Source: a virus (taxonomy: Duplodnaviria; Heunggongvirae; Uroviricota; Caudoviricetes). From it: DNA of 64,000 bases. The notes under the pieces are model-generated. The model was not told where the DNA came from and ran no database searches. It worked only from the letters and a program-made list of their open reading frames with translations. Below, piece after piece: positions 59,791-63,930 of this stretch (within the stretch, counting starts at the first letter, position 1; each line of letters opens with the position of its first letter). The DNA is taken from the IMG/VR virus record IMGVR_UViG_3300022601_000011; one strand, 5' to 3'. Made by a program: the position numbers and the translations under genes.

Positions 59791-60365
59791 TCCTCTGTTC
59801 CTCCGATTCCAAGAGATTTTAAATATGCTTCAGATAATTTAAACGCCGCAGGACGAGATTGAGACCAAGTTTTTAATTCTTCTACAATCTAAGCAGAAGC
59901 TTTACATAATTCACTATAACCAGCACCGATATCGATAATTCTTAATATCGCACTGAGCTATTCTCGAATACGATTGATATATTTTTTTTCTTCTTTAGAC
60001 CAATCATCTTCGGCAACAGAATTAATGAAAGTTTCACCAGCATTTAAAAAATTATCTAACAATAAGAATAATGCGCTGCAAAAGCAATTCCAATCATGTT
60101 CTGAATATAAAATTAAATAAGATGGAAATCTTAAAGTTAAAAATTCCAAACTAGTTTTAATATTACTCGGAAAATTTCCTAAATCTTTAGGATCACTATC
60201 AGGAGTCATTGCTTTTTCTAAATAACGACAAACATATTCAATTATATTTGTCAAGTCTGGATGGCGAGATAATAAAAAACTACCAATTGGACCTCTATTA
60301 TCTAATTCTTTTAATACTTCATGACGAGCTTCGCCATAAGTCATTTTTACAAAATTATTTAACAT
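59787..60365 (-). CDS. hypothetical protein; 2 in-frame TAG
   Basis: 192 aa, ORF 59958..60365 extended through TAGs. Confidence 0.35.
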
Positions 60366-61725
60366 TATTTAACTCCTTTTTCACAAACTCTAATTGCTTT
60401 GCTATTGAAGCATCAACTTGAGATAACAGTAAATCATAAGCTTGATATTTAGTTAGACCTTCAATAGTTGCTGCTAATAATGTATATACGGTAGCACAAA
60501 CGGAAGGAATTGGTACAAATAAATTGTTATTACTTTCATGACAAGCTCCTAAACATTGTCCTACACATAATTTATTAATAGGACATTGAGAGCACATGGG
60601 CATTCCTTCTTTGTTAACAGAATATACTGTAATTAGCAATTCAGCATTTTTATTTTTATATGTTAAAATTTTATCCTCATCTTCTATGAACTATCCACAA
60701 TAATAATGTTCATATCCTGTCCTGTGGCAAGGATAAACCATTAAATCACTAAGTCGAACGCATAAAGTATTCTATAAACCACAAGTTAAGCCTCTTCCTA
60801 CTCGAGTTAAAGGACTAGCCATTATATTAAAACCGTGTGCTTTTAGAATAAAATTTACTAAATATTCTGTGTTACATCCAACTTTTTGGTATACCCAATC
60901 ATATAAGAACAAAATAAAATTATAATATTCTTTTAAACTGACATCGTCCCATTCTTCATTGCGAACATTAAGTAAATATAAATTTTCCCAAGGAATATTA
61001 AATTGTTCCATTTTTTCTTGGAACCATAAGAAATTTTCTTTCCATTTAGCAATATTTTTACTGTAAATCATTGGATGTAATCCATATTGATGTTCACTAC
61101 AATATTGAAAAACTTTATTATAATATTCATCATCGCGAGAGGTATTAATATCAAAATCTAATGTCTTGGTATAAGGACGATTTTGTTCCATATGAGCTCC
61201 ATCAAAACTCGCACTTAAAAATAAATGGATATTAATTTGTTCAAACTATTTTTGAAAATTAGTGATTTTTTCTGTCAATGTATCAGAATTTAAAAAAGTA
61301 AAATTTGTAGGAATTGTTATAACTTTGCATCTTAAATGTTCAGGCAAATGTAACTCATGATCATAAATTACTTGTAAAATTTTTAGACCAATTTCCTAAG
61401 CAAATAATTCTCCTGAAAAAATATCTAAATCTGGATTAAATTCATTTTTTTCAAGCCATTTTAAAATTAAAGTTAAATTTTTTAATGTTAATTCTTCATT
61501 AAAAATATCTTCATTAAAAATATGTTTTTTATGTTTATGAATATAGCAATATTTACATCCTAAATTACATTTGGGAGAAATAATTAACTCTAAAGATTTT
61601 TTAGAAGCTGTATGACTATATTTAAAATTAGAGAAAAAATATGTTTCTAAAAAATTGTCTGCCAATTTCTAATTTTCATATTGATAAGCTTCTAAACCAG
61701 TAGTATTAATAATACAATTTTCCAT
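60355..61725 (-). CDS. radical SAM enzyme with full C-terminal SPASM domain; 5 in-frame TAG
   Basis: 456-codon consistent frame. N-terminal SPKCNLGCKYCY (CxxxCxxC). The C-terminus carries LTCGL[Q]NTLC...PCH...YYCG...MCSQCPINKLCVGQCLGAC (7-8 Cys SPASM pattern). Confidence 0.65.
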
Positions 61726-63101
61726 TACAAAACTCCTCTTACTCTTTCTAATTTAAAATAATTTTCCAACTCCTATTGAGCTCCATTTCCCAATAAGCGC
61801 AAATAACTAGCAGGAGGAATAAAAGGATTACTTGTATAATCTTCTTCTGCTCCTATATGACAATAAATACCGCTCATCATATAAAACATTATTAATCGAG
61901 CTTCATCATTTTCAATATATAATTTATCAATCTAGCCAGCTTTAGCCATCATAAAAATTAATGCATCTAAAAAATTTTTTCGAGCTACAATATCTTCATG
62001 AAAAACCCAATTAGCATAATTACGTTTTAACCATTTTGAGCCAGCAGGATGATCCACATTAGAGTTAGAAAGCATAGATCCTTTATATTTTAAATTATCT
62101 GATAAAGCTGCATTTCGACATAAACGATTACAAGTATATATTGTACCATCATAATCAACACTATAATTATATTTTCCGGAAGAACAAGAAAAATAATTAT
62201 ATCCCTAAGCAATAGGATTGTGTATGTTTTCTGCTTCGAGAACAGTATTTAAACACTAATAAAACAATGGTACATGTTGACTTGCCTCATGCCATTTACT
62301 ACGGTCTACATATTTTAACATTGATATCCATTTTGCAAATATTTTACCATCTTCAACTGTATAATATCCTGGATCTACTAATGTAGGTATTCCAAATACA
62401 TGACAATCACTAACTGTAGAATTATTTTTAATAATATCATGTGCTTTTCCATGAATTTCATTCATGAAATCATAATACCACTAAAATTTTTCTATTCCAC
62501 CTTCAACCATTTCTCTCATATAACTAATATCAAGAGTGGCTTTAGTAGAAACGCTAAATTTAAAATATTTACAATTAAATGGAGTTCTTTCAAGTAAAGT
62601 ATATAAAGTATTTAAAGTATTTTTAGTGGCTCCTTCATGACGTGATTTATCATTAAATTCAGGAGGACCATCTAAACTTAGCTGTAATTCAAAAGTAAGA
62701 GGACGTGAATTAGTTTCTGCATAACTTAATAAAGGTAAATAAAATTGTTCGTAAATAATATCTGCACCTAACAATGCATTTGTCGAAAACATTAAAGAAT
62801 GTACATTTGGAAAAAAATCTAAGCATTGATAAATAGTATCTTTAAAATATATACCATTAATTGTAGGTTCTGCACCCCACAAACTTAAATTTTCAATATT
62901 ATCTTTAATATGTTCAAATTTATTTTTTATATTATTAACATATGTACCATTTTCTAAAGCTTCTCGTAATGCTTTATTATAGGTTGCCATTGCTTTTTTA
63001 TCTTTTTCAATATAACAATACTAACATGCCATATTACAATCAGAAGACCAATGCAATGAAAGTGATACACAATGTTCTAACGCCTTTTTCTCGTAATCCA
63101 T
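61725..63101 (-). CDS. radical SAM enzyme with twitch/partial-SPASM domain; 6 in-frame TAG
   Basis: 458-codon consistent frame. N-terminal DCNMAC[Q]YCY (CxxxCxxC, with the Gln inside the motif encoded by TAG), SLDGPPEFND (GGE-like motif), C-terminal CSSG...YDGTIYTCNRLC. Confidence 0.6.
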
Positions 63102-63400
63102 TATCCTACATTTCCTCCAAAATAAGAATACCTATGACTACTATTATATCCAGAATAATTTGTACTTAACTTGCCGCTATTATAAGAATTATAACTTTTA
63201 TAAGTTGAATCATGACTAGACTTCAATGTACCATTATAAGTTACATCCCAAGAAGCAAATTTTTCTGTATTATGAGCTGAACAATGGTATTCTAGATACT
63301 CTGTAGCTGTTTCTATAATATGGTTTAAACTATTTTCATGCTTTATTGACTAATCTTTTTCAACTATAGTTCCAAACATATTATTCCAATTATACGCCAT
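63101..63400 (-). CDS. small protein with Ser/Tyr/Asn-rich repeat tail (candidate rSAM substrate/precursor); 1 in-frame TAG
   Basis: 99 aa. Tail TYKSYNSYNSGKLSTNYSGYNSSHRYSYFGGNVG. TAATG overlap with the downstream rSAM gene. Confidence 0.45.
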
Positions 63401-63414
63401 TATTAATACTCTCC

Positions 63415-63930
63415 TTACCAGTTGGTTCCCATATTACTAGAATTACGACCGGTACACCAACCAGAATGTCGATTACTATTATATGAGTCATAACCACTAT
63501 ACTAAGATGTTTTTACTGAAGTATTTTTAGAGCTATTATAAGTCTACCAGTGTGTAGTTTTATCTGCTCCATAACCAGCGCCACTATGAGCTTCTTCTTC
63601 TGCAACCTGCATTAAATTATATAAAGCATTTACTGCGTCGGCAGTAATTTTACCATTTTTTTCTGCACTATTAATTTCGTTAAAACGATATGCCTAATTT
63701 AGCGGCTTAATATTTGTTTCGGTACGCTCGTCTGGAAATACAGCAACTTCAGATGGTACTGTATGTTCTTCTTTATCTGCTTCATCATATGTATTTTCTG
63801 ATCTACGACTATTGGCCTAAGTGTCAGTAGCAAATAAATTCCAATTAATTTTAATTCCAAACACTTCATCCCACATATTATATACCGCTGTTTTTGCAGC
63901 AAGGTAATCATCGAAAAGTATTTGAGCCAT
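63415..63930 (-). CDS. protein with Ser/Tyr/Asn-rich repeat tail (candidate rSAM substrate/precursor); 4 in-frame TAG
   Basis: 171 aa. Tail TYNSSKNTSVKTS[Q]YSGYDSYNSNRHSGWCTGRNSSNMGTNW. AGGAGG RBS. Confidence 0.45.

Follow-up and report, generated by a model that had tools for sequence, protein, structure and literature searches.

Two tandem radical-SAM enzymes beside repeat-tailed proteins: a conserved candidate protein-maturation cassette in the late region of a recoded phage

Introduction

What does a pair of radical S-adenosylmethionine (rSAM) enzymes do in the late region of a phage, next to two small proteins with tails made of Ser, Tyr and Asn repeats? The question is raised by a stretch of 64,000 nucleotides (the window) from a virus of the class Caudoviricetes, IMG/VR record IMGVR_UViG_3300022601_000011, in which six closely packed genes, A-B-R1-R2-D1-D2, run on the minus strand from position 63930 to 59491. 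A reading of the bare sequence without database searches (the sequence-only reading) had likened this arrangement to the loci of peptides that are ribosomally synthesized and modified post-translationally (RiPPs) and had proposed that A and B are precursors of cyclophane-bearing products, either a secreted peptide or a crosslinked component of the virion or its fibres.

We wondered whether the arrangement exists outside this phage and what the enzymes are likely to modify. The comparisons described below point to a genuine and widespread new family of two-rSAM protein-maturation cassettes. For the window phage we give a probability of about one half to the following reading: the locus serves specifically for protein maturation, and modified A and B stay proteins and are associated with the virion or tail fibres. 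Taken by its parts, maturation of A and B by the cassette is probable, and the odds of a protein product associated with the virion or with adsorption are roughly even. A literature search on phage rSAM/SPASM proteins, tail fibres and viral or phage RiPPs returned no description of such a cassette.

Results

Gene layout and the decoding of TAG

Gene A (63415-63930, minus strand) encodes a 171-aa protein of the family we call SN-long, and gene B (63101-63400, minus strand) a 99-aa protein of the SN-short family; they contain 4 and 1 in-frame TAG codons, respectively. They are followed on the same strand by R1 (61725-63101; 458 aa, 6 in-frame TAG), a twitch-like rSAM enzyme, R2 (60355-61725; 456 aa, 5 in-frame TAG), an rSAM/SPASM enzyme, D1 (59787-60365; 192 aa, 2 in-frame TAG), a putative all-helical partner protein, and D2 (59491-59790; 99 aa, 1 in-frame TAG), a small protein whose gene is the final one ahead of a hairpin. 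The B/R1 and R1/R2 junctions are TAATG stop/start overlaps, R2 and D1 overlap by 11 nt, and D1 and D2 overlap through ATGA. The sequence-only reading had described two enzymes of about 457 aa with overlapping stop and start codons, and its gene coordinates, sizes and strand are borne out, under a reading of TAG as a sense codon only.

With translation table 11, both rSAM genes are split into fragments of 40-169 aa, and all in-frame stops of the six genes are TAG: A, B, R1 and R2 exist solely if TAG is a sense codon. Its meaning follows from alignment with homologues, which include proteins of standard-code phages. TAG codons 110 and 318 of R2 fall on columns that are Gln in 26/26 homologues, and TAG codon 390 of R1 falls on a column that is Gln in 12/12. 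This placement on family-invariant Gln columns demonstrates, at the level of aligned sequences, that TAG is decoded as Gln in the window phage. As all its genes carry in-frame TAG, the cassette escapes standard annotation pipelines there. Recoding is genome-wide and spans functional classes, with 11 TAG codons in the gene of a RecJ-like DHH protein (39201-41108, plus strand) and 7 in a GIY-YIG gene (31181-32137, plus strand). In-frame TAG was considered as a late-gene marker that could date expression of the cassette, and the counts in these two genes led us to reject it.

The window encodes an array of seven tRNAs at 98-1484 (Met, Arg, Ala, Pro, Leu, Gln-UUG and Ser) that includes no CUA suppressor, so the TAG decoder must be located elsewhere in the genome. 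A second kind of reassignment is found in one of the related loci (identified here by L numbers), L011 (IMGVR_UViG_3300035537_000062), where a TGA codon aligns with the family-invariant Trp228 of R2; by this alignment, TGA is read there as Trp (a code 4-like code), and not as Gly.

The two radical-SAM enzymes

R1 displays the motif CNMAC(Q)YC at residues 22-29 (C22-x3-C26-x2-C29), invariant in alignment A4 of its family, and R2 displays CNLGCKYC at residues 53-60 (C53/C57/C60), invariant in alignment A1. R1 has just three further family-invariant Cys (C306, C324 and C414), and we therefore class it by this pattern as twitch-like, not SPASM. R2 has seven invariant C-terminal Cys, at positions 315, 333, 378, 381, 387, 391 and 410, which correspond to the SPASM motif. 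These assignments, an N-terminal CxxxCxxC in both enzymes with a full SPASM domain in one and a twitch-like domain in the other, agree with those of the sequence-only reading. Neither enzyme has an N-terminal extension of the size of a RiPP recognition element (RRE) ahead of the cluster motif. In two relatives the CxxxCxxC loop of R2 contains an intein: a mini-intein before the second Cys in L006 (6995-8812), and one with a LAGLIDADG domain before the third Cys in L058 (56-2326). The location of these inteins marks the loop as a conserved functional site. The two inteins sit at different positions and look like independent insertions.

Matches of R1 and R2 to known families are weak. Against Pfam Radical_SAM (PF04055), window R1 and R2 each score 22.2 bits (gathering threshold 29.5); R1 of L052 reaches 30.8 bits, and many R2 homologues carry a precomputed match. 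R1 also scores 21.7 bits with Pfam Fer4_12, and R2 scores 23.7 bits with the SPASM model TIGR04085 (cut-off 27), which 25/27 homologues match at E<=1e-3. The best NCBIfam matches of R1 are PapB (42 bits), DynA (38) and anSME (36), far under the cut-offs, and R2 scores 50 bits with PapB, for which the cut-off is 340. In profile searches of the PDB, R1 matches CteB, ChlB, 8vpo and anSME (1e-5 to 4e-8; ChlB 4.9e-8), and the best match of R2 is CteB (2e-9).

Taken over the two families, the models matched are PapB, QhpD, the Nif11-peptide maturase, SCIFF, anSME, YhhB, GrrM/OscB, DynA and HxsB, all below cut-off. Judged by these profiles, both families match only models of SPASM/twitch rSAM enzymes that modify peptides or proteins. 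The Pfam and NCBIfam comparison shows no firm clustering of R1 or R2 with anSME or nucleotide-modifying families, which the sequence-only reading had named as the outcome that would speak against it. None of the proteins A, B, R1, R2 and D1 falls within a curated family.

Proteins A and B and the SN families

Protein A consists of a helical N-domain followed by a 59-aa tail rich in Ser, Asn, Thr, Gly and Tyr (…QYSGYDSYNSNRHSGWCTGRNSS…), and protein B of an N-domain, MAYNW…EYHC, followed by a 51-aa tail in which Ser accounts for 24%, Tyr for 16% and Asn for 12% (…YKSYNSYNSGKLSTNYSGYNSSHRYSYFGG). The tail sequences had been quoted exactly in the sequence-only reading. The density of Ser, Asn and Tyr in B and A is the highest among the 243 open reading frames (ORFs) of the window, with B at the top. 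Each protein has one Cys. In B and most relatives a conserved Cys is located at the junction between N-domain and tail; this junction Cys is missing in A.

Proteins of the SN-long family have an N-domain of ~75-95 aa that ends in a conserved …D-x-N-x-C motif, and those of the SN-short family an N-domain of ~40 aa that follows the pattern M-x-F-x-W … E-I-R-x-N-x-D … C. The window proteins connect to these families through a close relative of the locus, L098. A matches its positional equivalent in L098 by BLASTP at 3e-19, and that protein matches the SN-long hidden Markov model (HMM) at 7e-7; B matches the B protein of L098 at 2e-19, which in turn matches the SN-short HMM at 4e-5. Identity between A or B and close relatives is 45-47%, tail included. 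By this transitive chain and by synteny, A is an SN-long and B an SN-short protein. Direct links from A or B to the SN families were not recovered: hhalign gave nothing significant, jackhmmer from A or B returned the query alone and the SN HMMs miss both proteins. Pfam, PHROG, NCBIfam (E<=0.1) and PADLOC contain no family that matches A or B.

An AlphaFold2 (AF2) model of SN-long made from alignment A5 has a mean predicted local distance difference test score (pLDDT) of 43.5, with helices at 17-33 and 60-74 and a disordered tail, and is too poor for a fold search. Faint likenesses to structural families were found between L005 SN-long and Gp5_trimer_C and between the L050 tail and a VgrG spike (E 0.02). 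Searches of PDB sequences with the long tails gave low-complexity noise alone.

Across loci, SN tails are alike in composition and not in sequence. Asp plus Asn make up 15-37% of every tail, and Ser, Thr and Gly are high, whereas Tyr ranges from 1-20% (8-16% in the window tails). The tails of L005, L050 and L009 contain 1-3% Tyr and nearly no other aromatic residues. Cys content is 0-5% in most tails, and charge varies from strongly acidic (L005 and L050) to basic (L004). Many tails show significant periodicity at 4 or 8 residues (z up to 10 vs shuffles), as in the repeats YNSTVRSSYNATVDSVDNVTVYTGQNTG of L056 and GEDIGENVGANAGANIGEN of L050. Tail length extends from ~20 to >500 aa, and the full proteins of L055 and L056 have 566-585 aa. 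Read by eye, many tails also contain N-x-S/T triplets.

D1 and D2

D1 is predicted to form a helical bundle (pLDDT 83), for which structural neighbours were uninformative, and has a conserved C-terminal motif, PxAF(K/E)LSxxYL. A D1 homologue follows R2 in every locus with sufficient flank. D2 is kept only in the gut clade of TAG-recoded phages: a gene for a protein of 99-104 aa follows D1 in L001, L004, L092, L098 and L099, distant loci do not conserve it and searches of known families returned no match. In the gut clade, D2 and a 112-aa protein encoded upstream of A (L001 7410-7748) bracket the cassette. The two are alike by eye in length and hydrophobic pattern and may be paralogues, and neither is conserved in distant loci.

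Distribution and conservation of the cassette

Contexts of the cassette genes were taken from encoding contigs, IMG/VR, Joint Genome Institute (JGI) metagenomes and GTDB genomes and annotated with HMMs built from the cassette families; the main comparison covers 27 loci, and additional loci were examined separately. The arrangement A/B-R1-R2-D1 was found in >30 metagenomic loci, a lower bound, with three genetic codes among them: the standard code, TAG=Gln and, in L011, TGA=Trp. R2 has 208 homologues in a collection of 5.8 billion proteins, nearly all of 430-490 aa and many on contigs of 130-275 kb, and when 1.84 billion cluster representatives were searched with an R2 profile, 371 clusters matched at E<=1e-30. 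An IMG/VR scan with R2 alone recovered no locus, and alignment A1 was needed to recover them. The identical 456-aa R2 is present in the public protein collection, encoded on 16 contigs; one of these is 168,658 bp long, which gives the window phage a genome of ~169 kb. Contigs from ERZ27248314 and ERZ27247467 place the phage in gut samples.

R1 lies immediately before R2 in all loci with enough flank, and one or two SN proteins adjoin the enzymes there. Variations on this order occur. The SN genes are placed after D1 in L010 and L097, R1 is split in L012, and in L008 the order is R1-D1-substrates-R2-D1, that is, one D1 per rSAM enzyme. In L052 (399-2894), R1 is fused to a Glycos_transf_1 domain (52 bits).

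The linkage also holds in reverse. Searching with the SN-long N-domain profile as query yielded 23 small hypothetical proteins, and SN-long, SN-short, R1, R2 and D1 were all present in 3/3 contexts examined. Because this search led back to the cassette, the linkage of SN proteins with the rSAM pair is reciprocal, and sequence comparison shows SN proteins, R1, R2 and D1 to be a conserved linked set. A and B homologues never occurred without the rSAM pair in the contexts examined, a check on linkage that had been set beforehand. The RiPP-like arrangement perceived in the sequence-only reading, repeat-tailed proteins next to a tandem rSAM/SPASM pair, is thus conserved over very large distances, and since it recurs in distant relatives it is more than a chance juxtaposition.

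Some loci have cellular-looking neighbours. In L036 (3488-5104 and 6175-7068) and L056 (6887-9273), genes for the gamma and alpha subunits of pyruvate:ferredoxin oxidoreductase (POR; ~170 bits) accompany the cassette, with a beta-like subunit two genes after D1. L036 was binned into a metagenome-assembled genome (MAG) of the candidate phyla radiation (CPR; Colwellbacteria). In L095 (4495-5478 and 10165-10821), TatC and TatA genes precede the cassette and a ComF-like gene follows it. We had considered the family to be strictly phage-borne and rejected this on the neighbours in these three loci. From its position beside two rSAM enzymes, POR could supply reduced ferredoxin or electrons for their clusters.

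Genomic surroundings

In the window phage, the cassette lies between baseplate/fibre genes and lysis genes. Upstream, just past the window end, are genes for three Gp10_C baseplate-like proteins, an 833-aa BspA-type leucine-rich-repeat protein, a family 2 glycosyltransferase (GT2) and a 226-aa fibre protein with the domain we call FC. The GT2 gene (L001 5673-6722) is separated from the window end by ~1 kb and sits three genes upstream of A. Downstream, the minus strand encodes D3 (58642..59433), a 263-aa protein that is fibre-like by eye and lies outside the cassette, an endolysin (57564-58496; PG_binding_1 and Peptidase_C39_2, by PHROG match and the Pfam annotation of an identical contig) and two holin-like proteins (57183-57551 and 56782-57183; PHROG matches). 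The placement in the late region, next to a fibre-like gene and the lysis genes, is as the sequence-only reading had it. D3 has no Pfam or PHROG match; by eye, its N-terminal motif KEG(Y/T)xYFTTDD is common to a 456-aa protein of L004.

FC is a conserved C-terminal domain of ~150 aa (…VWNDYAEYR…GRVLAY…GDxVC…YPERIIGxVS…GRIWIKV). Proteins that contain it flank the cassette in L001 (6715-7395), L004, L006, L007, L010, L011, L060 and L093. The larger FC proteins match PHROG tail-fibre families (8e-19 and 8.5e-15); the smaller ones have no PHROG match, and the domain corresponds to no Pfam family. In L096 and L007, Laminin_G_3 proteins are encoded upstream. Glycosyltransferases are repeated companions of the cassette: in addition to the fusion in L052 and the GT2 of the window phage, a protein with GT2 and GT1 domains is encoded directly after D1 in L055 (6386-8239). 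This association, together with the N-x-S/T triplets, suggests that the tails may also be glycosylated.

No protease or transporter gene was found inside the cassette in any locus examined. The peptidase domain nearby, Peptidase_C39_2, belongs to the endolysin, and TatA/TatC adjoin the cassette in L095 only.

Discussion

A proposed maturation cassette for tail-associated proteins

HXS is the closest known architecture: the cassette works like HXS or like a RiPP maturation system and belongs to none that has been described. The layout general to RiPPs is present, with a conserved N-domain and a hypervariable tail in proteins that always adjoin R1 and R2. We infer that A and B are the substrates and that the SN N-domain serves as the recognition, or leader-like, element. 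D1 would act as an adaptor or chaperone for R1 and R2, a role suggested by the lack of an RRE-sized N-terminal domain in either enzyme. R1, with one auxiliary cluster, and R2, with two, would use 5'-deoxyadenosyl radicals to abstract hydrogen repeatedly along the tails and so introduce covalent modifications. For the clade with Tyr/His/Trp-rich tails, cross-links between side chains are the leading guess. An aromatic residue cannot be the universal target because the tails of L005, L050 and L009 are almost free of aromatics; the family-wide target would instead have to involve the backbone, or the Asp/Asn or Ser/Thr positions that are conserved throughout. The product would then act extracellularly, built into or bound to the tail fibre or baseplate, and in some relatives it would also be glycosylated.

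Of the two products envisaged in the sequence-only reading, the modified virion- or fibre-associated protein is the one we favour, because the substrates are of protein size, the cassettes encode no protease or exporter, their neighbours are tail-fibre genes and they are linked to glycosyltransferases. The Gp10_C and Laminin_G_3 neighbours and the TatC and TatA genes of L095 likewise speak for a structural or extracellular role. The small secreted peptide fits poorly with proteins of up to 585 aa, with the lack of a protease or exporter and with the fibre neighbours. In its widest form, the proposal is that RiPP-type rSAM chemistry, often with glycosylation as well, serves phages and probably also some CPR bacteria to make an adhesive or fibre component that lies outside the cell. 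The rSAM pair and an adaptor would covalently remodel the tails, up to ~500 residues long, of two paralogous proteins, and the products would be mounted on the tail fibre or baseplate. This we advance tentatively, at somewhat less than even odds.

Several observations weigh against assigning the cassette to the virion or its products to a known class. Accessory 'moron' genes also often sit between tail-fibre and lysis genes, and the TAG content of the cassette genes is no evidence of late expression, as the 11 codons of the RecJ-like gene illustrate. The cellular-looking loci L036, L056 and L095 mean that the cassette is not strictly a virion feature. A search of 50,697 GenBank phage records, by blastn with 58000-64000 and by tblastn with R2, found no cultured phage with the cassette. 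On the protein side, D1 matches no known structural family and none in Pfam, PHROG, NCBIfam or PADLOC, and searches of PHROG, Pfam and the PDB gave no structural family for the SN N-domains. The N-domains of A and B themselves reach the SN profiles only transitively via L098, and the AF2 model of SN-long is of low confidence with a disordered tail.

A small peptide as a possible alternative product

The alternative that survives best is a classic RiPP, in which the N-domains are cleaved off and the tails become small cyclophane-type (triceptide-like) peptides, released at lysis as a toxin, signal or anti-competitor. Its leader-plus-core layout is that of A and B, with the maturases alongside, and the helical N-domain, at 40-85 aa, is about as large as NHLP- or Nif11-type leaders. 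The window tails contain 8-16% Tyr and many Tyr-x-Ser/Asn triplets; triceptide precursors carry aromatic-X-X (Omega1-X2-X3) motifs as their modified units (native motif of ChlB, YDR; PMC11499958). At this Tyr content, the motif is trivially present in the tails. As in triceptide systems, a SPASM-type rSAM enzyme lies beside proteins with many such motifs, the triceptide synthase ChlB is among the best PDB matches of R1 (4.9e-8), and 12/13 R1 homologues weakly match YhhB and 9/13 match GrrM/OscB.

The scores, however, do not set the cyclophane maturases apart. Window R1 and R2 score 12-25 bits with XyeB, FxsB and YhhB, for which the cut-offs are 370-450, and over all homologues the scores for XyeB, FxsB, GrrM/OscB, YhhB and AmcB are 12-45 bits against 350-450 (best homologue E 7e-11). 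Models of thioether maturases, anSME, QhpD and HxsB are matched just as weakly. Triceptide, or three-residue cyclophane (3-CyFE), systems, whose maturases also include HaaB, are marked by a cross-link from an aromatic carbon to a C-beta, which takes away 2 Da per motif. They have one maturase where the cassette has two and D1, and they differ from it in substrate size (here up to 585 aa) and in its phage tail module context. The nearly aromatic-free tails of L005, L050 and L009 do not fit either, cores of several hundred residues (L055 and L056) are far above RiPP size, no cassette includes a gene for a leader protease or exporter, and the cassettes consistently lie within tail-fibre modules. 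The cyclophane or triceptide label of the sequence-only reading therefore fails as a description of the family; cyclophane formation is possible in the Tyr/His/Trp-rich gut clade. Overall, we consider a small peptide product unlikely.

Other rSAM systems share traits with the cassette. Thioether maturases, the enzymes of sacti- and ranthipeptide systems, give the best sequence matches: PapB is matched by 27/27 R2 and 13/13 R1 homologues, and CteB/SCIFF (5wgg) is the top PDB match of both families. They need Cys-rich substrates, whereas A and B have a single Cys each, and the scores are <= ~60 bits against cut-offs of 340-453. QhpD, which cross-links a protein subunit and not a leader peptide, is matched by 27/27 R2 homologues. 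The enzyme anSME (TIGR03942; PDB 4k36) has no N-terminal RRE and acts on a protein, and its CxxxCxxC lies near the N-terminus as in R1; its model has a cut-off of 349 bits, of which the window enzymes reach 27.6 and 36.4, the cassette contains no sulfatase gene and A and B have, by eye, no (C/S)xPxR-type sulfatase motif. In the proteusin pathway (polytheonamide, PoyA/PoyD), a large helical leader precedes an Asn/Val/Thr/Gly-rich core that is modified iteratively by an rSAM enzyme at regular spacing and adopts its beta-helical fold only after modification. PoyD-type epimerases form a different rSAM subfamily, and A and B match no NHLP or Nif11 leader model.

Possible other targets for R1 and R2

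It could also be that A and B are not substrates at all, and that R1 and R2 act on a tail-fibre or other virion protein, a small molecule or a nucleotide, with A and B as ordinary linkers or fibre proteins of low complexity that travel with the enzymes. The enzymes do often have FC tail-fibre neighbours in which Cys residues are conserved, and the rSAM core weakly resembles viperin. However, FC proteins are missing in L005, L012 and L050-L056, whereas an SN protein is present wherever flank exists, and the reciprocal search returned a strict linkage between SN proteins and rSAM enzymes. Both enzymes belong to the SPASM/twitch peptide-modifying clan, for whose RiPP members adjacent repeat-bearing substrates are the rule. 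We regard this alternative as improbable, and A and B as the likely targets.

A possible HXS-like function

HXS is an antiphage system in which two rSAM enzymes, HxsB and HxsC, act with a small protein, HxsD, that binds HxsC; the substrate HxsA contains five His-x-Ser repeats, is processed, carries a +8 Da modification on SHRSS and has its place of action in the periplasm (Li et al., Nat Commun 2026, PMC13128918). In common with it, the cassette has a SPASM-type rSAM enzyme adjacent to a second rSAM enzyme, a small partner protein and a protein-sized, repeat-bearing putative substrate whose matured form would be a protein and not a small peptide; the short tandem repeats of HXS are rich in His and Ser. 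One could imagine a role for the matured repeat proteins in superinfection exclusion, by which DNA of competing phages is kept from entering, or in interference with an HXS-type system of the host. In addition to the matching architecture (PMC13128918), there are weak matches to HxsB (TIGR03978; 11/27 R2 and 9/13 R1 homologues, best 7e-9), R1 matches HxsC (TIGR03977) at E 0.02, and the tail of B contains SSHRYS; in HXS, the modification maps to SHRSS.

Membership in HXS (TIGR03976-03979) nevertheless fails for all four components. The scores are far under the Hxs cut-offs, with R1 at 13.7 bits for HxsC against 267.9, and A, B and D1 match no HxsA, HxsD or other Hxs model and none of PADLOC. 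Gene order is substrates-R1-R2-D1 instead of D-B-C-A, there are two substrates instead of one, and the tails reach hundreds of residues with Asp/Asn as their shared denominator. HxsA has a peptidoglycan-binding domain, which A and B do not, and judged by eye A and B have no signal peptide. Tails that range from acidic (L005 and L050) to basic (L004) misfit a common electrostatic role in DNA binding. HXS is a defence island found to 99.7% in Pseudomonadota (PMC13128918), whereas the cassette is phage-borne, in tail-fibre modules of phages with SpoIID or PG_binding_1 endolysins, and occurs in likely CPR contexts. The window phage is large and, with a RecJ-like exonuclease and NrdD/NrdG of its own, probably virulent. 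A function of this kind is highly improbable in our view. As a phage-borne counterpart of the bacterial HXS architecture, the cassette raises the question of which side invented it.

The weakest alternative is an artefact, in which genuine TAG stops in AT-rich DNA have been read through and so yield the low-complexity tails and the long ORFs. It draws on the region having the lowest GC of the window (0.27-0.30) and on the fragmented table 11 ORFs, and is refuted by TAG codons on invariant Gln columns, full-length homologues in standard-code phages, an identical 456-aa protein on 16 contigs and the conservation of the tails in relatives.

Implications

If A and B are matured as proteins and carried on the virion, this would be the first rSAM post-translational modification of a virion protein, and the leader-guided, iterative rSAM logic of peptide natural products would act on phage proteins as well. 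Virion or adsorption proteins could then carry cross-links, D-residues or other radical marks that annotation does not predict, with possible effects on host range, on resistance to proteases and on stability in sediment or the gut. The cassette adds a family of ~370 sequence clusters of paired rSAM enzymes, whose long, regular candidate substrates would suit mass spectrometry and engineering.

Other features of the region and the window

A promoter-like site, TTGACT-17-TATTAT with a TG extension, lies upstream of A (63953..63981, minus strand) and is followed by AAAGGAGGG, the ribosome-binding site of A. It received the top score of our promoter scan. The region contains 63 promoter-like sites against 51.8 +/- 7.6 in shuffled sequence, and since this total is not above expectation, the site ahead of A is only suggestive. 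Directly past the stop codon of D2 lies a hairpin with a 12-bp palindrome and a poor T-tail (59460..59487), which may end the A-B-R1-R2-D1-D2 transcription unit. The GC content at 60001-64000, 0.27-0.30, compares with ~0.35-0.45 elsewhere in the window and may reflect Asn/Tyr/Lys-rich coding or a separate ancestry.

On the plus strand, 48344-51074 encodes the anaerobic ribonucleotide reductase NrdD (736 aa) and its rSAM activase (162 aa), as read from the Pfam annotation precomputed for an identical contig. The presence of these two genes points to an anaerobic host, which would fit oxygen-sensitive rSAM chemistry.

Further along the minus-strand late operon are genes for proteins of 219 aa (54086-54745), 139 aa (54726-55145) and 263 aa (55167-55958), the latter two without a Pfam match. 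The 219-aa protein has a Gly/Ser/Asn-rich centre and the top low-complexity score in the window, and the 263-aa protein displays a GNGNGGFGNWGDGWW N-terminus and a CCC cluster. At the border between the plus-strand block and the minus-strand late block, a GC-rich hairpin of 12 bp, perfectly paired and flanked on either side by T-runs (53734-53761), is likely to be a bidirectional terminator.

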